Origin: Novosphingobium sp.
GTDB taxonomy: Bacteria; Pseudomonadota; Alphaproteobacteria; Sphingomonadales; Sphingomonadaceae
DNA: 64,000 nt
Assembly: GCA_046590275.1 (NCBI GenBank)
Contig: JBKJTN010000064.1
Coordinates: 16,277 to 80,276 of the forward strand
Reading direction: 5' to 3'
The translations under genes were made by a program, and so were the position numbers. The notes below the pieces were generated by a model. That model was not told the DNA's origin. It was given only the letters and a program-made list of their open reading frames with translations, and did not search any database. Shown here piece by piece: positions 26,723-64,000 of the stretch. Every line of letters begins with the position of its first letter. Position 1 is the first letter of the stretch.

Positions 26723-26799
26723 TGGTGCGCCCGACGGGATTCGAACCCATGGCCCCCAGATTAGGAATCTGGTGCTCTATCCTGCTGAGCTACGGGCGC
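26723..26799 (-). tRNA. tRNA-Arg (anticodon CCT)
   Basis: The reverse complement folds as a 77-nt cloverleaf: GCGCCCG-TA-GCTC..GAGC-A-CCAGA-TTCCTAA-TCTGG-GGGCC-ATGGG-TTCGAAT-CCCGT-CGGGCGC-ACCA. CCA is encoded. Confidence 0.93.
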
Positions 26800-49978: not shown

Positions 49979-52594
49979 ATGAGTGGGGAAACGCGCATTG
50001 TCGCTATCGGTTCGGGTGCGCAGGAAACGGCGCCTGATGAAATATTGCTGTCCGAGGAATTTGAAGTTCCGACGGAGTCAGCTGACGAGTGGGCGGACGA
50101 CCCGCCTGCGCCTCGTCGAGACTGGGCAGCAACTCTGCTGCCAACCATGGCATTCGGGACCATCCTGGCTTGGTCAGGGCTGTTTGGCTGGGTAAACCGA
50201 AGTGCGATCCTGGCGGGAGGCACCGTTGGTCAATGGTTGGACTGGATCGGTGATTGGTCGATGCCGGTCCTTCTGGTTTGCGTCGCCTGGCTGCTGGCGA
50301 TGCGCAGCAGCACCCGCGAAGCCAAGCGATTTGGTGATGCCGCCCGGCTTTTGGGGGATGAATCCAGCAGGCTGGAGAGCAGGCTTGTCGCCATGAACCG
50401 TGAACTCAGCCTCGCGCGCGAGTTCATCGCAGCGCAGGCCCGTGATCTGGATTCGCTTGGCCGCGTGGCGACCGAGCGGCTTTCGCAGCACGCCGATAAG
50501 CTTGACGGGCTGATCAAGGACAATGGCGCCCGCTTGTCCACGATCGGCAACGTCAGCGCCAGTGCACTCGACAATATGGAAAAGCTGCGCGGCCAGCTGC
50601 CCGTGATTGCCAGTTCAGCCAAGGACGTCACCAACAATATCGCCAATGCGGGCCGGACGGCCTACAGCCAACTTGATGATCTTATTGCCGGATTCAACCG
50701 GTTGAACGATTTTGGCCAGGCCAGCGAACGTCAGGTTTTGGCACTGCGGGTGACGATCGATCAGGCGTTGGGAGAATTTACGCGCCAGACCGATCAGCTG
50801 GACGAAATAACGACGGCCCGCTTTGCCGAGCTGACCGAACGCGGCACAGAATTCCGGACGCAGCTTGATAGCGCTGAGGTGGAAGCCCTCGCTACGATCC
50901 GCACCCGCGCATCAGCATTGGTCGAAGAACTAGGACAGGTCCGCCAGACTCTTGATGGGCATGAGGCCGAAAGCCTGACATCGCTCCGCGCGCGGCTGGC
51001 TGCAGTGCGTGACGAGGGTGCTGCAGTCACTCGCGCGCTTCGCGATGGCGAAAGTCAGGCGCTCGATGCCTGGCGCCGCGCTGTGGTTCAGCTTGAAACT
51101 GATCTTACTACAGCGATTGAGCAAGTCGGCGTAATCGACGGGAAAGCAATGGAATCGGCCAAGAACCGCCTGACCGCGCTTTCGCGCGAAGCCGAAGAGA
51201 TTGATGCCCGGCTTCTGGAACGTAACCGGCTGTTTGACGAGGAGGTTGAGCGGCGGCAGCTCGATTCCGAAAGCAGCAATGAGAAATTCATGCTCCGCGT
51301 CAGCGATCAGCTGGCCAAACTTGACCAGGAAATCTTGTCTCGCCGGGCCGAGCAGGAAGATCTGTCGCGCCACTTAATCACCCACAGCGAAACCATTTCC
51401 GCCCAGCTGGTCAGTTTTGCCGAGCGGATGGGACTTATCGCGGCGCATGGCAGCGAAGCCGAAACAAAGATTTCCGCCAGCCTGACCACGCTGGCCGATC
51501 GGCTGAATGCCAGCCGGCAGGCGCTAGCGGGAACGGACACGTCGATTGCCGAGCTGACGGATAGCAGCGTCCGCCTGCTCGAACTGATCCAGGCCAGTGT
51601 GAAACACAGCAACGCGGACCTGCCGGCAGCAATGACGGTGAGTGAAGGCAGGCTGGCGGAACTGGAAACCCGCGCGTTGGCGCTGCGCGATACCGTAGCC
51701 GACGCGACGGGACGCGGCGAGGCATTGTCGAACTATGTAATCTCAGCCCATAGTGAACTTGTCTCCACGATGGGCGAGCTCGATAGCCTTCATGCCGGAT
51801 TGGACAAGCAAGCGACTTCACACGCCGCTTCGCTCAATGACATCCGCCAGTCGCTTGTGCAGGCGCAAGGGGAAAGCGCGGCACTAGCTGAACGTTCGCA
51901 GGCAGAATTGCGCAGCGCAATCGAAGCGTTGACCGGCTCGGCCCGCGAGGCGGTAATGAGCATCGAACAGATGAGCGCTGCATCGGTGCAGGCCCTGGCC
52001 GAACGGCTAGGTGAGGAAAGCGGCGCGGCGATCGAAAAAGCCATGCGTGTCCGTACCGCAGAAGCAGTCGGCCAACTTGAGCAGGCATCGGCGCATGCTG
52101 CCGGCGTCAGCCGGGAGGCTGCGATTCAGCTGCGAGACCAGTTGGGCAAGGTCAACGAACTGGCGGCAAATCTTGAAAGCCGGGTTGCCCATGCCCGCGA
52201 GCGAGCCGAGGAACAGGTCGACAATGACTTCGCCCGGCGCGTCGCGCTGATCACCGAATCACTGAACTCCAACGCGATTGACATCGCCAAGACCATGTCG
52301 AGTGAAGTAACCGACACCGCCTGGGCATCCTATCTTCGCGGAGACCGCGGTGTATTCACCCGCCGCGCTGTCCGCCTGCTCGATGCCTCAGAGGCCAAAG
52401 CAGTAGCCCAGATCTATGAGAAAGATGGCGAATTTCGGGATCACGTGAGCCGCTATATCCACGATTTCGAGGGTATGCTGCGCCAATTGCTTTCGACCCG
52501 CGATGGCCATGCCCTGGGGGTGACGCTGCTCTCGTCCGATATGGGCAAGCTCTACGTGGCGCTGGCTCAGGCTATCGAGCGCCTGCGCAACTAG
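49979..52594 (+). CDS. Large membrane-anchored coiled-coil protein, function unknown
   Basis: 871 aa with an acidic N-terminus and two TM helices (about residues 55-115). About 700 aa of heptad-like E/R/L/A/Q-rich sequence follows. Confidence 0.7.
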   Translation: MSGETRIVAIGSGAQETAPDEILLSEEFEVPTESADEWADDPPAPRRDWAATLLPTMAFGTILAWSGLFGWVNRSAILAGGTVGQWLDWIGDWSMPVLLVCVAWLLAMRSSTREAKRFGDAARLLGDESSRLESRLVAMNRELSLAREFIAAQARDLDSLGRVATERLSQHADKLDGLIKDNGARLSTIGNVSASALDNMEKLRGQLPVIASSAKDVTNNIANAGRTAYSQLDDLIAGFNRLNDFGQASERQVLALRVTIDQALGEFTRQTDQLDEITTARFAELTERGTEFRTQLDSAEVEALATIRTRASALVEELGQVRQTLDGHEAESLTSLRARLAAVRDEGAAVTRALRDGESQALDAWRRAVVQLETDLTTAIEQVGVIDGKAMESAKNRLTALSREAEEIDARLLERNRLFDEEVERRQLDSESSNEKFMLRVSDQLAKLDQEILSRRAEQEDLSRHLITHSETISAQLVSFAERMGLIAAHGSEAETKISASLTTLADRLNASRQALAGTDTSIAELTDSSVRLLELIQASVKHSNADLPAAMTVSEGRLAELETRALALRDTVADATGRGEALSNYVISAHSELVSTMGELDSLHAGLDKQATSHAASLNDIRQSLVQAQGESAALAERSQAELRSAIEALTGSAREAVMSIEQMSAASVQALAERLGEESGAAIEKAMRVRTAEAVGQLEQASAHAAGVSREAAIQLRDQLGKVNELAANLESRVAHARERAEEQVDNDFARRVALITESLNSNAIDIAKTMSSEVTDTAWASYLRGDRGVFTRRAVRLLDASEAKAVAQIYEKDGEFRDHVSRYIHDFEGMLRQLLSTRDGHALGVTLLSSDMGKLYVALAQAIERLRN

Positions 52595-55334: not shown

Positions 55335-56111
55335 TCAGTTAGTATCTTGAAGGCGCACTTCGCCCGCGTGGATGCCATGGCACGTTCCGTCCGCCAAGCG
55401 AAGCAGCAAGGCGCCGTCTTCAGTAAGACCCGCGAATGTCCCCGCCAATTTTTGCTCGTTCGGCTCGCCGACTTCGAGCGGCGTGCCGATCGCGTGCCCG
55501 GCGGCGAGCCAGCGGGCGATCACCGGCCCCAGCCCATAGCTCCGCCAACGCTCCAGTTCGGCCCCGAACTGTCGCGCCAGATCGGCGGCGAATTGATCCC
55601 GGTCCGGGGCAGGTCCAAAGTCGCTCAGCGCGATGGTCGCGCGATCGGGCATCTGCGGGGCTGCGGCAAGATTGACGCCGATGCCGATGATCACCGCGTC
55701 GCGTACCCGTTCCAGCAAAATACCTGCCAGCTTGGCTGATCCGATCATCACATCATTGGGCCATTTGAGTACCGCACGTTGCGGCGCGGCAAGGCGGTTG
55801 GTCACTACTTCATGAACTGCCAGCCCCGCCAGCAAGGCTAAAGTTCCGGCCGGTGGATCGCCGGGGCCAAGATGGACGGGTGTCGAACCCATGAAATTGC
55901 CCGCACCATCGAACCATTCGCGGCCTTGCCGTCCCCGCCCGGCGCTTTGCCGGTTAGCGATCAGCCAGAAGCCCTCAGCAATCTGCTCGTCCGCGGCAAG
56001 CCGGGTCAAGAGATCGGCGTTGGTCGATCCGGTGAGATGGACAATTTCAATCAAACCGGGAATTTCAGGCAAAGTTGGACAGAGCAATCGCCGCTGCTTC
56101 GGCCAATTCAC
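55335..56111 (-). CDS. birA: Biotin--[acetyl-CoA-carboxylase] ligase (no HTH domain)
   Basis: Contains GRGRQGREW and KWPNDV. The start is uncertain because the ORF-track start overlaps the nuoN 3' end by 47 nt. Confidence 0.86.
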   Translation of the reverse strand: MNWPKQRRLLCPTLPEIPGLIEIVHLTGSTNADLLTRLAADEQIAEGFWLIANRQSAGRGRQGREWFDGAGNFMGSTPVHLGPGDPPAGTLALLAGLAVHEVVTNRLAAPQRAVLKWPNDVMIGSAKLAGILLERVRDAVIIGIGVNLAAAPQMPDRATIALSDFGPAPDRDQFAADLARQFGAELERWRSYGLGPVIARWLAAGHAIGTPLEVGEPNEQKLAGTFAGLTEDGALLLRLADGTCHGIHAGEVRLQDTN

Positions 56112-57528
56112 CCAATGGCTTGGTCAGAAAATAGCCCAGCGGCGAAATGAATAGCGCTGAAATCCCCAGCAGTGCCTGATGCGCCCAATCGCTGCGACCA
56201 ACAATCTTGTTCGCCGGCTCGTCAAAATACATGATTTTGACCACTTTGAGATAGTAATAGGCACCAATCACCGAGGCGGCGATGCCAATCGCGGCCAGCA
56301 GAACAAGGCCAGCCTGGACTGCCGCCTGGAACACCACGAACTTGCCCCAGAAACCGAACAGCGGCGGAATTCCTGCCAGGCTGAACATGATCATGGCAAG
56401 GCAAGCGGCGAGCACCTTGCGGTGCTGTGACAGCCCGGCAAGATCGGCAATATCCTCGACCGGCGCGCCGTCCGCATCCTTGAGCATCAGCACTGCGACG
56501 AATCCGCCGACAGTCATCGCAACATAGATCGCCAGATAAACCAGCATCGCTGCCGCGCCCTGCGGCGTTGCAGCAGCCAAACCGATCAGGATGAATCCAA
56601 CGTTGTTGATCGAGGAATAGGCCAACAGGCGTTTGATGTTCTTCTGTCCGATCGCACCCAGAGCGCCAACCACGATCGAGGCCAGCGCTGCGAAGATCAC
56701 GATCTGTTGCCAAGCTGCCGCCTGCCCGGCGAACGCGACCAGCGTAACCCGCATGGTCAGCGCCAGCGCCGCCACCTTGGGCGCGGAGGCAAAGAACATG
56801 GTAACCGGGGTCGGCGCGCCTTCATAAACGTCGGGCGTCCACATGTGGAACGGCACTGCGCTTATCTTGAAAGCAAGGCCCGCCAGCATGAAGACGATGC
56901 CGAACAACGCACCCTGCGAAAGCCCGGATTCGAGCGCCTGATTAATCCCGGCAAAGCTGGTGGTTCCGGTAAAGCCATAGGTCAGGCTCATCCCAAATAG
57001 CAGGATGCCGCTGGCCAGCGCGCCAAGCACGAAATACTTGAGGCCAGCTTCGGCCGAACGCTCGTCGTTGCGCAGAAATGCGGCAAGCACATAGGCGGCG
57101 AGCGAGTTAAGCTCGAGACCGATATAGAGCGTAATCAGGTCGGTGGCCGAAACCATCATCCCCATGCCCAGCGCGGCGAACAGGATCAGGACCGGATATT
57201 CGCTGCGCATTGCCTTAACCCGGTCAAAGAACGCAGGAGCTACAATCAGCGCGGCGCCGGCCGCGGCATAGATCAGCAGCTTGGCAAAGCTTGAGAAAGC
57301 GTCGGCTCGGTACTGACCGAAGAAGGCCGAGGTTTCCGGTCCCATCGCGCCATTGCATAGCGCGGGCGCGACGAGGAAGGCGCATGCAGCCAGCACTGCC
57401 ACCGAGGCAATGCTGATCGCACGAGCAGCCTTGTCACCTGCCCAAGCTGCAACCAGCAACAAGACGAGACCCGCAATGCTGAGCAATTCCTCGGGCGCGA
57501 CGAGGCGAAGTGAATGGCCCCAATCCAT
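56065..57528 (-). CDS. nuoN: NADH-quinone oxidoreductase subunit N
   Basis: 487 aa, polytopic antiporter-like subunit, in operon order after nuoM. Confidence 0.93.
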   Translation of the reverse strand: MDWGHSLRLVAPEELLSIAGLVLLLVAAWAGDKAARAISIASVAVLAACAFLVAPALCNGAMGPETSAFFGQYRADAFSSFAKLLIYAAAGAALIVAPAFFDRVKAMRSEYPVLILFAALGMGMMVSATDLITLYIGLELNSLAAYVLAAFLRNDERSAEAGLKYFVLGALASGILLFGMSLTYGFTGTTSFAGINQALESGLSQGALFGIVFMLAGLAFKISAVPFHMWTPDVYEGAPTPVTMFFASAPKVAALALTMRVTLVAFAGQAAAWQQIVIFAALASIVVGALGAIGQKNIKRLLAYSSINNVGFILIGLAAATPQGAAAMLVYLAIYVAMTVGGFVAVLMLKDADGAPVEDIADLAGLSQHRKVLAACLAMIMFSLAGIPPLFGFWGKFVVFQAAVQAGLVLLAAIGIAASVIGAYYYLKVVKIMYFDEPANKIVGRSDWAHQALLGISALFISPLGYFLTKPLGELAEAAAIALSNFA

Positions 57529-59057
57529 TAGTGCGCCCCCTCTTGTGCAGCAGCTTCGATTTTCTTGGGCTCTCCCAGTTTTAATCTAGCGTCGCCTTCC
57601 GGCCTTGACCGCGCAATCCGGGCATCGAGTGCAGCGATATCGCTACGCATCGGGGCGAGGAAGCTTTCGGGATAGACCCCCATCCACAAAACCACGGCGG
57701 CGAGCGCGGCCATCATCGACCATTCGCGGCGGTCAAGATCGGGCATGGCGGCGGCATCGGCATTTTTCTGAACGCCGAAGAATACCCGCGCGTACAGATA
57801 GAGCATATAGGCCGCGCCGAGGATGATCCCCGTGGTGCAGACCAGCGTCACCCAGCTGCTAACCTGGTAAATCCCGGCCAGGCTGAGGAATTCTCCGACA
57901 AAGCCACTAGTGCCAGGCAGGCCGACCGAGGCCATGGTGAACAGCATGAAGAACAGCGCATATTGCGGCATGTTGATCGAAAGGCCCCCGTATCGGATAA
58001 TCTCGCGGGTGTGCAGCCGGTCGTAGATCACGCCCACGCCAAGGAACAGCGCCCCCGCAACCAGCCCGTGGCTGAGCATGACGATCATCGTCCCTTCAAG
58101 CCCCTGCACGTTGAAGGCAAACAGCCCGACGGTGACAATCCCCATGTGAGCGACGCTTGAATAGGCGATCAGCTTTTTCATGTCGTCCTGCACCAGCGCC
58201 ACCAGCGAGGTGTAGATCACTGCGATCATCGACAGCGCGAAGATCAGCCAGGCAAATTGCGCCGACGCTTCGGGGAACATCGGAAGCGAGAACCGGATGA
58301 AGCCATATCCGCCCATTTTTAGAAGGACGCCGGCCAGAATCACCGAGCCTGCGGTCGGCGCCTGAACGTGCGCGTCGGGTAGCCATGTGTGAACCGGCCA
58401 CATCGGCATCTTGACCGCAAAGCTGGCAAAGAACGCCAGCCACAGCCATTTCTGCGCGTCAGGCGCGAAGTCATAGTTCATCAGCGTCGGGATATCGGTG
58501 GTACCGGACTCGTTCACCATCCACAGCATCGCGATCAGCATCAGCACCGAGCCGAGCAGCGTGTAGAGGAAGAATTTGTAGCTGGCGTAAATTCGGTCTG
58601 CCCCGCCCCAGATGCCGATGATCAGATACATCGGGATCAGGCCTGCCTCGAAGAAAATATAGAACAGGAACATATCCTGCGCGGTGAACACGCCGATCAT
58701 CAGCGTTTCCATCAGCAAGAACGCGGCCATGTATTCGCCAACGCGCTTGTCGATCGAGGTCCAGCTTGCACCGATACAGATCGGCATCAGGAACACCGAG
58801 AGCATGATCAGCATCAGCGCGATGCCATCGATCCCCAGCGCCCAGTTGAACCCGGCGAACAGAGGTAGATGCTCGGTAAATTGCCACTGCGCACCACCTA
58901 TATCGTAGTTGGCCCACAGCAATATGCCGAGCGCGAAATCGGCCAGCGTAGCCGCCAGCGCAATCATTCGAGCCGTCTTTGCCTCAGCGAACAGACAAAA
59001 CACTGCGCCGATCAGCGGCACAACGAGCATCAACGACAGGATGGGAAAGCCGTTCAT
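57528..59057 (-). CDS. nuoM: NADH-quinone oxidoreductase subunit M
   Basis: 509 aa containing PMWPVHTWLPDAHVQAPTAGSV. Confidence 0.93.
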   Translation of the reverse strand: MNGFPILSLMLVVPLIGAVFCLFAEAKTARMIALAATLADFALGILLWANYDIGGAQWQFTEHLPLFAGFNWALGIDGIALMLIMLSVFLMPICIGASWTSIDKRVGEYMAAFLLMETLMIGVFTAQDMFLFYIFFEAGLIPMYLIIGIWGGADRIYASYKFFLYTLLGSVLMLIAMLWMVNESGTTDIPTLMNYDFAPDAQKWLWLAFFASFAVKMPMWPVHTWLPDAHVQAPTAGSVILAGVLLKMGGYGFIRFSLPMFPEASAQFAWLIFALSMIAVIYTSLVALVQDDMKKLIAYSSVAHMGIVTVGLFAFNVQGLEGTMIVMLSHGLVAGALFLGVGVIYDRLHTREIIRYGGLSINMPQYALFFMLFTMASVGLPGTSGFVGEFLSLAGIYQVSSWVTLVCTTGIILGAAYMLYLYARVFFGVQKNADAAAMPDLDRREWSMMAALAAVVLWMGVYPESFLAPMRSDIAALDARIARSRPEGDARLKLGEPKKIEAAAQEGAH

Positions 59058-59058
59058 A

Positions 59059-61077
59059 CTAGCGCACCATCACCCAGCTGATTGCCGCGACTAGGCCGAG
59101 CAGCATGAACAGCGCATAGCTGTAGAGATAGCCCGACTGGACCCGCTGCGCGAAGCCCGAGCCAAGCGCGACCAGCCTGGCTGCGCCGTCCGGTCCAAAC
59201 CGGTCAATGATGCCAACATCGCCGCGCTTCCAGAACAGGCGTCCGATCCAGAAGGCTGGCCGGACGAAGATCAGGTCATAGAGCTCGTCGAAATACCATT
59301 TGTTGTAGAGGAACCGGTGCAGCACCGTAAACTGCTCGACGAACAGCGCCGGGAAGCGCGGATTGCGAATATAGGCGTACCAGGCAATCAGCAGTCCGGT
59401 CAGCATCACTGCGAACGGCGCCCATTTCACCCACAGCGGCACCTCGTGCATCGCGTGGATCAGATGCTCGTCATAGAAAATACTGCCCTTCCAGAAGTCT
59501 GCTTCATTGATGAAGGCTTCGTGGAAGATGAACCCCGCAAACACCGCACCCAGGCTCAGCACCCCAAGTGGCACCAGCATCGACAGCGGGCTTTCGTGCG
59601 GGTGATAACCGGCGGTTCCATCGTCATGATGGGCATGATCACCATGGCCGTGGTCGCCAGGGTGGTGATCGTCATGGACCGCATGCTGGATATGCTCTGA
59701 CGAGGACCAGCGGGGTTTGCCCCAGAAGGTCAGGAACATCAGCCGCCAGCTGTAGAAACTGGTCAGCAATGCGGCGAAAATGCCGACGTAGAACGCAAAT
59801 GTCCCCATTTCGGTCCCGCCAGCATAGGCCGCCTCAAGGACAGAATCCTTGGAATAGAACCCGGCGAAACCGAATACGCCCACGATCCCGACTCCGGTAA
59901 TAGCCAGCGTTCCTGCCAGCATTGCCCAGAAGGTAAACGGGATCTGCTTACGCAAGGCCCCATAGTGCCGCATATCCTGCTCGTGGTGCATGGCATGGAT
60001 CACCGACCCTGCCCCAAGGAACAGCAGCGCCTTGAAGAAGGCATGGGTGAACAGATGGAACATCGCCGCGCCATAGGCACCAACGCCCGCAGCAAAGAAC
60101 ATATAACCCAGCTGCGAACAGGTCGAATAGGCGATCACCCGCTTGATATCCCACTGCGAGGTGCCAACCGTTGCAGCAAAGAAGCAGGTCGCAGCGCCGA
60201 TGAATGTCACAACGGCCAACGCCGTTGGGCTGGTCTGGAACATTGGTGACAGGCGGCAGACCATGAACACGCCTGCCGTCACCATCGTCGCAGCGTGGAT
60301 CAGCGCGGAAACCGGGGTCGGCCCTTCCATCGCGTCGGGCAACCAGGTGTGGAGGCCAAGCTGCGCCGATTTGCCCATCGCGCCGATGAACAGCAGGATG
60401 CAAAGTATGGTCATCGTGTCGAAGCGATAACCGATGAAGCTGATGGTCGATCCGGCCATGCCGGGCGCAGCTTCCAGAATTTCCGGGATCGAGACAGTGC
60501 CGAACACCAGATACGTTCCGAAAATCCCTAGCATGAAGCCAAGATCGCCCACCCGGTTGACCACGAAGGCCTTGATCGCGGCGGCGCTGGCGCTGGGTTT
60601 CCTGAACCAGAACCCGATCAGCAAATAGGACGCGAGGCCCACCCCTTCCCAGCCAAAGAACATCTGGACCAGGTTGTCGGCGGTAACCAGCATCAGCATA
60701 GCGAAGGTGAACAGGCTGAGGTAAGCGAAGAACCGCGGCTGATCCGGGTCTTCCTCCATATAGCCCCAGCTATAAAGGTGGACGAGCGCGGATACGGTAG
60801 TGACCACCACCAGCATCACCGAGGTCAGCGCATCGACGCTCAGCGCCCAATCGAAGCGCAAATTGCCCGATTGCACCCAGTGCAGCACCGGAGTGACGCT
60901 CGGCTGCGCAGTGCCAGCCACGAATGACAGGAAGATCGGCCAGCTCAATCCGCAGGCGATGAACAGCGCACCGGTGGTCAACAGCTTGACCACGGTATTG
61001 CCGAGCATCCGATTGCCAAGACCGCCGACGATCGCAGCAGCAAGCGGCAGGAATACGATGAAAAGGATCGAGTTCAA
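59059..61077 (-). CDS. nuoL: NADH-quinone oxidoreductase subunit L (copy 1)
   Basis: 672 aa with a TTG start, containing [16 protein letters not shown] and [24 protein letters not shown]. Confidence 0.93.
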
Positions 61078-61082
61078 AAGAC

Positions 61083-61388
61083 TTATCCCTTCATCCGGTT
61101 GACATCATCAACCGCAATTGTGCCGCGCCCGCGGAAATAGATCACCAGGATCGCCAGGCCGATCGCCGCCTCCCCCGCTGCCACGGTCAGCACGAACATG
61201 GCGAAAATCTGCCCAGTCAGATCGCCCAGAAAGGCGCTGAAGGCGACAAGGTTTATGTTCACTGCCAGCAGGATCAACTCGATCGCCATCAGGATGATGA
61301 TGACGTTCTTGCGATTGAGGAAGATGCCGAGCACGCCGAGCACGAACAGGATCGAGCTGACGACGACGTAATGCTCGATGCCGATCAT
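61083..61388 (-). CDS. nuoK: NADH-quinone oxidoreductase subunit K (copy 1)
   Basis: 101 aa containing [16 protein letters not shown]. Confidence 0.93.
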
Positions 61389-61897
61389 AGCTGCACCCCG
61401 GCGCCAACTTCTGGCTTCACATTGCGCGTCGCATCCTGCGGCCGGCGCTGGACCTGCGACGAGATATTTTGGCCGCGGGTGCCGCCGCGCTCGCGGTGGG
61501 TCAGCACAATTGCGCCAATCATCGCAACCAGCAGGATGATCCCCGCCGCCTCGAACAGGAACAGGTAGCGGCCATAAAGCAGCGCGCCGATGGCTTCGGT
61601 GTTGCTCGCTCCGGCCGCAGTTACCGCAGTTCCGTCGGGCGTCCCGAGTTTGAGTGCGCCGGCTTGCTGCGCGCCGATGCCGAACACCAGCTCACCGAGC
61701 AGCACCATCGCCAGCAGAATACCCAGCGGGAAATTCTTGATGAAACCAGCCCGCAATGCGGTAAAATCGATGTCGAGCATCATCACCACGAACAGGAACA
61801 GCACCGCAACCGCACCGACGTAAACGATCACCAGCAGCATCGCGATGAACTCTGCGCCCACCAGCACCATGAGGCCCGCGGCATTGAAGAACGCCAT
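61385..61897 (-). CDS. nuoJ: NADH-quinone oxidoreductase subunit J, 5'-truncated copy (lacks about 35 N-terminal codons)
   Basis: 170 aa starting [12 protein letters not shown], which aligns to residue 36 onward of the full-length plus-strand NuoJ. Upstream sequence is replaced by the inverted second copy. Confidence 0.75.
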
Positions 61898-62513
61898 GAT
61901 TCAGGTCTTCGCTTTTTACCTGTTCGCGTCGCTGGTGATCGCCTCGGCGGTGCTCACCATCATGTCGCGCAATCCGGTGCATTCGGTGCTGTGGCTGATC
62001 ATGGCGTTCTTCAACGCGGCGGGCCTGATGGTGTTGCTCGGCGCAGAGTTCATCGCGATGCTGCTGGTGATCGTTTACGTCGGCGCGGTGGCGGTGCTGT
62101 TCCTGTTTGTGGTGATGATGCTCGACATCGATTTTTCCGAATTGCGTGCGGGATTCATCAAGAATTTCCCGCTCGGGCTGCTGCTTGCGGCGGTCTTGCT
62201 GAGCGAGATCATGCTGGGTCTGGGCGCGGTTGGCGCGGGCGGGATCAAACTTGGCACGGCTGACGGCACTGCCCCGATTACTACGGGCACCAGCAATATC
62301 GAGCAGATCGGCATGCTGCTTTACAGCAAGTATTTGTTCCTGTTTGAAACCGCTGGGATCATCCTGCTGGTGGCAATGGTCGGCGCGATTGTCCTGACGC
62401 ACCGCAAGCGCGCGGGTGTGCGCGGGCAGAACGTCGCCAAGCAGAATGCGCGTCGCCCGGATGAGGCGACGGTCAACATGTCACCCGAAGTCGGGAAGGG
62501 TGTCGAGCTGTGA
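61896..62513 (+). CDS. nuoJ: NADH-quinone oxidoreductase subunit J (copy 2, full length)
   Basis: 205 aa from ATG 61896, reading [43 protein letters not shown]..., with a canonical NuoJ N-terminus. Confidence 0.88.
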
Positions 62514-62818
62514 CGATCGGCATCGAACACTATGTTATCGTGAGCTCGATCCTGTTCGTGCTGGGGGTGCTGGGGATTTTCCTCAATCGCAAAAATGTGA
62601 TCGTGATTCTGATGGCGATCGAATTGATCCTGCTGGCGGTCAACATCAACCTGGTCGCGTTCAGCGCGTTTCTGCACGATCTTACCGGGCAGATTTTCGC
62701 GATGTTCGTGCTGACCGTGGCGGCGGGTGAGGCGGCGATTGGGCTCGCCATTCTGGTGACCTATTTCCGTGACCGCGGCACCATTGCGGTTGACGATGTC
62801 AATCGGATGAAGGGGTAA
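62510..62818 (+). CDS. nuoK: NADH-quinone oxidoreductase subunit K (copy 2)
   Basis: 102 aa, about 94% identical by eye to the minus-strand NuoK. Confidence 0.9.
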
Positions 62819-62824
62819 GCCGCG

Positions 62825-64000
62825 TTGGATCCGATCCTGCTCATTGTTTTCCTACCGCTGCTGGCCGCGATTATCGGCGGGCTGGGCAATCGGATGCTTG
62901 GCAACACCGCCGTCAAAGTACTGACAACTGGCGCTTTGTTTATCGCCGCCGGGCTCAGCTGGCCGATCTTTTTCTCCTACCTGACCGGGACCGCTGAGCC
63001 GCATGTCGTGCCGGTGCTGCGCTGGGTGCAATCGGGCAGCCTGAGTTTCGATTGGGCGCTGAAGGTCGATACGCTAACCGCGGTGATGCTGGTGGTGGTG
63101 ACCACGGTTTCGGCGGTGGTCCACCTCTATAGCTGGGGCTATATGGACGAAGACCCCGACCAGCCGCGGTTTTTCGCCTACCTCAGCCTGTTCACCTTCG
63201 CGATGTTGATGCTGGTGACCGCCGACAATTTGGTCCAGATGTTCTTCGGCTGGGAAGGCGTGGGTCTGGCCAGTTACCTGCTGATCGGGTTCTGGTTCAA
63301 AAAGCCCAGCGCCAGCGCCGCTGCAATCAAGGCCTTCGTGGTCAACCGAGTCGGCGATCTGGGCTTTATGCTAGGGATTTTCGGCACTTATCTGGTGTTC
63401 AACACCGTCTCGATCCCCGAAATTCTGGTCCGCGCGCCCAGCATGGCCGGATCGACGATCCACTTTATGGGTGGTGAGTGGAGCACCATGACAATTCTGT
63501 GCATCCTGCTGTTCATCGGCGCGATGGGCAAGTCGGCGCAACTTGGTCTGCACACTTGGCTGCCCGATGCGATGGAAGGGCCGACCCCGGTTTCGGCATT
63601 GATCCATGCCGCGACGATGGTCACCGCCGGGGTGTTCATGGTCTGCCGCCTTTCACCGATGTTCGCGGTCAGCGAAACTGCCATGCACGTCGTGACTTAC
63701 GTGGGCGCAGCGACGCTGTTCTTCGCCGCGACGATCGGCACGGTCCAGTGGGATATCAAGCGGGTGATCGCGTATTCGACCTGTTCGCAGCTGGGTTATA
63801 TGTTTGTCGCGGCCGGAGTGGGCGCACCGGCGGCGGCGATGTTCCACTTGTTCACGCACGCCTTTTTTAAGGCGCTGCTGTTCCTTGGTGCGGGCAGTGT
63901 GATCCACGCGATGCATCACGAGCAGGACATGCGATATTATGGCGCTCTGCGGAAACATATCCCGCTGACCTTCTGGGCGATGATGGCGGGGACGCTGGCA
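62825..64000 (+). CDS. nuoL: NADH-quinone oxidoreductase subunit L (copy 2), partial, runs off the window
   Basis: Not in the ORF track because no stop is reached. TTG at 62825 opens 392 codons to the window end: (M)[26 protein letters not shown]...[24 protein letters not shown]...[10 protein letters not shown]. It is colinear with copy 1. Confidence 0.88.

Follow-up and report, generated by a model that had tools for sequence, protein, structure and literature searches.

The closest described counterparts of the feature analysed here, a head-to-head pair of nuoJ-K-L gene sets in a 64,000-nucleotide (nt) stretch of Novosphingobium sp. contig JBKJTN010000064.1 (the whole stretch is called the window below), are found among library and assembly artefacts, among genuine inversions and foldback duplications, and in the canonical nuo operon for complex I. 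In sequencing libraries, strand-split artefact reads (SSARs, Haile et al. 2019) always arise through short reverse-complementary regions (PMC6344851), and reads described by the PDSM model carry the sequence between short natural inverted repeats in inverted form relative to the reference (PMC10908179). Enzyme-induced dual-strand artefacts are a related class of library artefact (PMC7531576). During assembly, inter-genome chimeras arise from conserved sequence that is common to related organisms (metaMIC, PMC9661791).

The locus shares features with each of these systems and differs from each. As in strand-split and PDSM library chimeras, the junction lies in a short native reverse-complementary repeat, the sequence between the repeats is inverted, and the joined parts come from opposite strands nearby. 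Those reports concern single reads in human resequencing, whereas the junction in the window is part of an assembled contig of 64 kb or more, and its far side appears to derive from another organism. The abrupt change of source within a conserved stretch resembles the inter-genome metagenome chimeras of the MetaQUAST, metaMIC, DeepMAsED and ResMiCo classes; unlike the usual collinear switch, it comes with a strand flip at a distance of ~60-120 nt, and the combination looks like a head-to-head gene duplication. Genuine inverted-repeat inversions and foldback duplications likewise show a conservative flip between short inverted repeats and head-to-head arms, but in a true foldback the arms start identical and belong to the same lineage, whereas the arms in the window are ~80% identical and group with different lineages. 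In the canonical alphaproteobacterial arrangement, nuoA-N is followed by birA-coaX-rnj-DUF1467, and the window resembles it in encoding bona fide NuoJ, NuoK and NuoL on both arms and NuoM and NuoN on the minus arm. Unlike the canonical operon, its arms lack nuoA-I, and the nuoJ of one lineage (lineage A, see below) is split into two parts of opposite orientation. We conclude from the sequence comparisons below that the window is very probably a chimeric contig that joins two related, presumably co-occurring Novosphingobium-like (Sphingomonadales) populations inside nuoJ, and not a real genomic feature. The chimera would most likely stem from a short-read metagenome assembly or a metagenome-assembled genome (MAG).

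Architecture of the junction region

A repeat search paired the two arms, 59903-61900 on the minus strand and 61998-63999 on the plus strand, in inverted orientation as four collinear blocks with 75-86% complementarity. In a global alignment, the reverse-complemented left arm matches the right arm without internal gaps at ~80% identity overall (61-92% per 100 nt). An ungapped inverted match of 2 kb is far beyond chance. The arms meet at CATGAT (61895-61900), which fits both sequences, and the right arm has an overhang of 102 nt (61896-61997) without a counterpart on the left arm.

An earlier reading of this DNA from its letters alone (the sequence-only reading) had described nuoN-M-L-K and a nuoJ starting at residue 36 on the minus strand, adjacent to a full-length plus-strand nuoJ, a nuoK at 62510 and a partial nuoL from TTG 62825 with 392 open codons. 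Open reading frames (ORFs) and Pfam matches bear out this gene content. The minus-strand nuoJ (61385-61897) lacks the first 35 codons and begins at residue 36 of a normal NuoJ, while the plus-strand nuoJ (61896-62513) encodes 205 amino acids (aa) and covers positions 1-146 of the PF00499 profile. All Pfam matches for nuo genes (PF00499, PF00420, PF00662, PF00361 and PF06455) are above the gathering scores. The alignment also upheld the statements that the arms are reverse-complementary yet non-identical, and that six mismatches separate the plus and minus arms within the 60 nt after ATGGCG. Arm against arm, protein identity is 94.1% for NuoK and 87.0% for NuoL, in agreement with the earlier estimates of ~94% and 85-90%, and 75.3% for the NuoJ body. 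As also stated earlier, neither copy is preceded by nuoA-I: within the 64-kb window these genes were not found upstream of nuoJ in the same orientation for either arm. The ratio of nonsynonymous to synonymous divergence (dN/dS) of the two copies, proposed earlier as a check, is 0.05-0.21 (synonymous divergence, dS, 0.75-0.86).

General sequence properties around the junction add little. The GC content is 0.59-0.60 on either side and does not discriminate between them, and the skew signs flip across the junction as expected from any strand inversion. A promoter and terminator scan around the junction returned a single weak promoter-like site at chance level and is uninformative. A 222-aa ORF from ATG 61845, which would extend the plus-strand nuoJ upstream, was rejected as spurious: its first 17 residues are antisense to the minus-strand nuoJ, and the homologues are all 205 aa long and cover only its last 92%.

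Nearest relatives of the two arms

Related loci (given as L numbers) were gathered through exact-protein look-ups of both NuoK proteins, which led to many metagenome and MAG contigs; the names on the homologues are Novosphingobium or Sphingomonadales. The NuoK protein of the minus arm is identical to that of L014 and other contigs, all of them with canonical operons, and the exact NuoK of the plus arm occurs in many contigs, all with canonical nuoA-N context. At the nucleotide level the minus arm is 90-92% identical to L014 and L016 and 85-86% identical to L024-L026, a group that we term lineage A. For the plus arm, identity is 86-88% to L001, L002, L008, L017-L023 and others, which we term lineage B. 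Either arm reaches just 73-81% identity to the opposite lineage. The same division is seen in the minus-strand nuoJ, of which nt 120-618 are 90% identical to L014 versus 73-76% to lineage-B loci, and in NuoL, where the minus-arm protein is 94% identical to that of L014 (dN/dS 0.083) and the plus-arm protein 94-95% identical to those of L017 and L001 (dN/dS 0.06).

Tested for paralogy, the arms are not mutually closest, and loci of the own lineage are nearer to each arm than the opposite arm is. Against its own lineage each arm gives a dN/dS of 0.02-0.09, which is ordinary strong purifying selection. The arms are thus orthologs from different lineages and not paralogs. The suggestion that both copies are under selection in one genome accordingly has to be revised, as each arm shows ortholog-level purifying selection against the single-copy operon of a different lineage.

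All 36 related loci have one collinear nuo operon. In every relative whose contig reaches that far, nuoA-I are present upstream; downstream of nuo, as far as the contigs extend, birA-coaX-rnj (RNase J)-DUF1467 is followed by a conserved protein of ~870 aa. No second nuo module was found within +/-10 kb among the related loci. Judged by these relatives, there is probably no duplication within any one genome, and each population would carry one ordinary nuoA-N operon.

Composition of the plus-strand nuoJ

The plus-strand nuoJ changes its affiliation along its length. In windowed comparisons its first 100 nt are 93% identical to L014/L016 versus 72-78% to lineage B, and from nt 300 on it is nearer to lineage B than to L014/L016. 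Over nt 1-63 the identity is 94% to L014 versus 68-71% to lineage B. The A state is found at all 14 informative sites within nt 7-63, and nearly all sites from nt 120 have the B state. The encoded protein follows the same pattern, with 1-2 differences from lineage-A proteins versus 8-9 from lineage-B proteins in residues 1-35, and 95% aa identity to the lineage-B protein P0001 in residues 36-205.

A maximum chi-square analysis, repeated with three different pairs of parental proxies, placed the breakpoint at nuoJ nt 63-84, with at most one of 20000 permutations as extreme (p <= 5e-5). The A state is present at 17 of the 18 informative sites to the left of the breakpoint and at 31 of the 122 to the right. 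The cross-over can be placed within nt 64-119, because the plus arm first departs from the minus arm at nt 120; this run of at most 56 nt is conserved in both lineages. With relatives as stand-ins for the parents, identity to the plus arm extends over nt 68-128 in L021 (lineage B) and nt 85-119 in L025 (lineage A), and over nt 103-119 in the minus arm itself.

The head of the plus-strand nuoJ fits the minus-strand body better than its own. Its distance to L014 (94% nt identity) matches the distance of the minus-strand body to L014 (90%). Joining the plus-strand head to the minus-strand body gives a hypothetical protein that is 93-94% identical to natural full-length NuoJ (394 bits), and the actual plus-strand ORF scores below it, at 91% and 375 bits. 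In a comparison set of 211 natural NuoJ homologues of 205 aa, no A-type head is combined with a B-type body. All 64 B-type bodies have heads less than 80% identical to the head in the window, and the eight heads that are at least 90% identical to it are followed by an A-type body in seven cases and an ambiguous one in the eighth. The plus-strand nuoJ is therefore a lineage-A head fused to a lineage-B body. The 102-nt overhang at 61896-61997 belongs to the lineage of the minus arm, a point that the sequence-only reading missed. Its proposal of an inverted duplication that has since diverged, or of a second nuo cluster that is only partial, does not agree with arms that are not mutually closest, nor with a head-body mix that is absent from the 211 homologues.

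The rearranged lineage-A gene

The head on the plus strand (nt 1-102) adjoins the body on the minus strand (nt 103-618), and together they make up one whole 618-nt lineage-A nuoJ with no base gained or lost. Along the plus strand, the reverse complement of nuoJ-A nt 618 to 109 is followed by CATGAT, nuoJ-A nt 6 to 102, ATCATG, the conserved run to nt 119, nuoJ-B nt 120 to 618, nuoK-B and nuoL-B. The inverted repeat of 6 bp (9 of 10 with one indel) consists of CATGAT, located at the start codon, and ATCATG, located at nt 103-108, with a loop of 96 nt between them. Both motifs are native in the nuoJ of L014 and L016, and ATCATG is native also in L017, L021 and L025. CATGAT had been recognized earlier as microhomology, and it does fit both arms, but this description was incomplete: the partner ATCATG (61998-62003), 102 nt downstream, was overlooked.

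The lineage-A nuoJ is thus shown to be complete but rearranged, its first 102 nt being flipped in place between the repeat arms, and the sole non-native adjacency is that at 61895-61900. The comparisons with relatives show bases 1 to ~61997 to be lineage A; within nuoJ nt 64-119 the plus strand passes collinearly from lineage A to lineage B and continues into lineage-B nuoJ-K-L.

Two ways of producing the flip were rejected. A programmed invertible (phase-variation) segment is at odds with repeats of only 6 bp, an essential target gene and the lack of junction recurrence, and no recombinase gene was found near the junction. The known sites of invertases are all much longer than 6 bp. A pure turn-around in the de Bruijn graph without chimeric reads was discarded since a 6-bp repeat is far below any usual k.

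Occurrence in other assemblies

An exact 40-mer across the junction had no match in GTDB representative genomes or JGI metagenome contigs, and a degenerate pattern designed to catch the non-native adjacency whatever the lineage had none in JGI metagenomes or in 26 related loci. Among the 36 related loci, none contains the junction. This absence carries little weight, as the strains themselves are missing from the collections too: a 46-mer from the minus arm alone had no match in GTDB representative genomes, and protein look-ups gave no match for the exact minus-strand NuoM or the exact plus-strand NuoJ (205-aa and 222-aa versions). Lineages A (L028) and B (L017) are found on separate contigs of one metagenome sample, ERZ27315211, so that co-occurrence is shown for relatives.

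Related contigs tend to end at the same place. Six of the long (>10 kb) contigs (L004, L005, L006, L010, L028 and L030) end 13-390 nt upstream of nuoJ, so the nuoI/nuoJ boundary appears to be a hot spot for assembly breaks in these communities. One of them, the MEGAHIT contig L005 (ENA ERZ27315166 k141_984475; 1-260), starts with 96 nt of reverse-complemented nuoI, corresponding to L003 644-739. The flipped nuoI is joined to the nuoI-nuoJ spacer, and then to nuoJ, through an inverted-repeat overlap of ~12-13 nt (GGCACAGGCCG.A). L005 thus provides an independent example of a segment flipped between short inverted repeats in this part of the operon. No other strand-flipped tip was seen among 52 locus ends examined, which implies that this class of artefact occurs in these data but is uncommon.

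The spacer itself varies among the relatives. Some lineage-B relatives have a ~150-nt self-complementary (73%) element between nuoI and nuoJ (L003:847-993; L005:100-188). In other relatives the nuoI-nuoJ gap is 9-15 nt, and the ~150-nt element may be an insertion resembling a repetitive extragenic palindrome (REP) or a miniature inverted-repeat transposable element (MITE).

Discussion

The sequence-only reading had listed a foldback or a strain-chimeric assembly among its options, and our analysis favors both at once: a flip at a 6-bp repeat and a collinear cross-over between lineages A and B. The lineage-A contig would have come to a dead end in a part of nuoJ that is shared by A and B; assemblies of these communities often break around nuoI/nuoJ, since exact runs in this region are common to related populations. 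A chimeric molecule that arose by strand switching at the short inverted repeat would have been the only onward path, leading into the forward nuoJ head. Where A and B next have a run in common, the path would have entered lineage B, because the lineage-A nodes had already been used in reverse and were not reusable. By itself, a repeat of 6 bp is not long enough to mislead a de Bruijn graph, and junction-bearing molecules or reads must therefore have existed. A cross-over run of at most 56 nt would be in keeping with a k-mer assembler working on short reads, or with one chimeric fragment, but not with a long-read overlap assembly.

Several points weigh against a chimeric contig. The artefact was deduced from the sequence and not observed in reads, coverage or assembly metadata. 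The view is confined to 64,000 nt, and the source assembly is in none of the collections searched. The junction-bearing molecules may have been artefactual or a rare real variant, which the sequence alone does not distinguish. Assemblers normally prune low-coverage chimeric links, and the survival of this one would rest on the dead-end argument given above. In addition, the plus-strand nuoJ ORF is intact, though any collinear cross-over would keep it intact.

Together, a real inversion, a fully real structure and a plain concatenation are left a small but appreciable share of the probability. It is improbable that the 96-nt nuoJ head is really inverted in some or all lineage-A cells, inactivating nuoJ, with only the lineage-B continuation being an assembly error. 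A native inverted repeat flanks this conservative flip, as would result from in vivo recombination or template switching, and junction reads must have existed, since 6 bp cannot mislead a k-mer graph; the same signature, however, is that of a documented library artefact. Such an inversion would abolish a complex I subunit that is essential, yet selection on the lineage-A genes is not relaxed. ATCATG is followed by forward nuoJ, where the reverse-complemented nuoI-nuoJ spacer and nuoI would be expected, and the junction did not recur in any other assembly searched. Still less probable is that the whole structure is real, as a Novosphingobium-like chromosome with a second nuoJ-N module, acquired horizontally from lineage B and placed head to head with the resident one. 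Illegitimate recombination or template switching at CATGAT, combined with homologous recombination within nuoJ, would have given the hybrid NuoJ. The ORFs in both arms are intact, the plus-strand nuoJ is a full-length in-frame hybrid and GC is equal on both sides (0.59-0.60), but three events would have to coincide: the acquisition, a cross-over confined to 56 nt or less and a strand flip at the 6-bp repeat. The resident operon would then lack both nuoA-I and the nuoJ head, and the hybrid nuoJ would lack the upstream region native to it, where relatives have AGG/GGAG-like motifs and the window has ggcattgaagaacgcc. No relative has a contig with two modules (+/-10 kb), and the head-body combination is absent from the 211 natural NuoJ. 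The structure would also have to be very recent, as selection shows no relaxation; given the strong purifying selection on each arm, a truncated, promoterless lineage-A module without upstream genes cannot be old. If the whole structure were real, it would be a snapshot of the modular exchange of proton-pumping subunits between species, with a hybrid NuoJ.

That two independent draft contigs were concatenated without a spacer, another option of the sequence-only reading, is highly improbable. It would account for the absence of nuoA-I upstream of either arm and for the failure to find the junction in any public collection searched, and related contigs do often end near the nuoJ start. The two sides are, however, exactly complementary parts of one lineage-A gene (nt 1-102 and nt 103-618) and share the six nucleotides CATGAT at the join, for which the chance is ~1 in 4096. 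The right piece would have to begin exactly at the nuoJ start codon and itself be an A-to-B chimera, and random neighbors in a contig list would not fit in this way. An old inverted segmental duplication of nuoJ-K-L(-M-N) within one genome, since diverged to ~80% identity, would explain why the arms are inverted, collinear and ungapped with mostly synonymous differences. It can practically be dismissed, because each arm is much nearer to the single-copy operon of a separate lineage than to the other arm. Moreover, the central overhang carries the lineage of the opposite arm, and a truncated copy without upstream genes could not have kept a dN/dS of 0.02-0.09 over a dS of ~0.8.

At face value the locus reads as a duplicated, diverging complex I membrane arm, which makes a tempting evolutionary story; the evidence indicates a misassembly. 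Bases from ~61896, and certainly from ~62015, should not be assigned to the source organism of bases 1-61895, and any genome bin with this contig would be contaminated by a second Sphingomonadales population. A false duplication of this kind can be detected without reads by comparing the nearest relatives of each arm and by asking whether the central overhang belongs to the opposite arm. The locus also suggests that a strand-flip artefact and a switch between populations can combine within ~100 nt. Its value is that of a data-quality warning and a worked example of chimera detection from sequence alone, and not of new biology.

Feature coordinates and neighboring genes

Table 1. Features of the nuo region, in window coordinates.
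Feature	Position	Strand	Remarks
nuoN, lineage A	56065..57528	-	PF00361; 94.7% aa identity to L025 nuoN, dN/dS 0.046
nuoM, lineage A	57528..59057	-	PF00361; 93.3% aa identity to L025, dN/dS 0.084
nuoL, lineage A, full length (672 aa)	59059..61077	-	PF00662, PF00361, PF06455
nuoK, lineage A	61083..61388	-	PF00420
nuoJ body, lineage A, codons 36-205	61385..61897	-	PF00499 profile positions 20-146 only
CATGAT, base -1 to +5 of nuoJ, left repeat arm	61895..61900	.	Fits both arms
nuoJ head, codons 1-34, lineage A	61896..61997	+	Piece missing from minus-strand nuoJ, in opposite orientation
Cross-over interval A to B, nuoJ nt 64-119	61959..62014	+	Maximum chi-square and first arm mismatch
ATCATG, nuoJ nt 103-108, right repeat arm	61998..62003	.	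Homology to minus arm starts here
nuoJ body, lineage B	62015..62513	+	85-88% nt identity to L017, L021-L023 versus 76% to L014
nuoK, lineage B	62510..62818	+	PF00420
nuoL, lineage B, first 392 codons, continuing beyond window edge	62825..64000	+	PF00662, PF00361; TTG start

In the full-length lineage-A NuoL (59059-61077, minus strand), a His/Asp-rich insert at residues ~470-500 separates the antiporter core from the C-terminal helix region. Among the relatives, NuoL is 672 to 692 aa long, which suggests that this segment is variable. The nuoN and birA ORFs as listed overlap by 47 nt (56065-56111, minus strand), and the birA start at GTG 56111 may be placed too far upstream. An 871-aa ORF at 49979-52594 on the plus strand has no Pfam match; a neighbor of 860-882 aa, convergent with the DUF1467 gene, follows nuo-birA-coaX-rnj in both lineages where the contigs reach that far. 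A tRNA-Arg(CCT) at 26723-26799 on the minus strand is the sole RNA gene identified in the 64-kb window by ARAGORN and Rfam.

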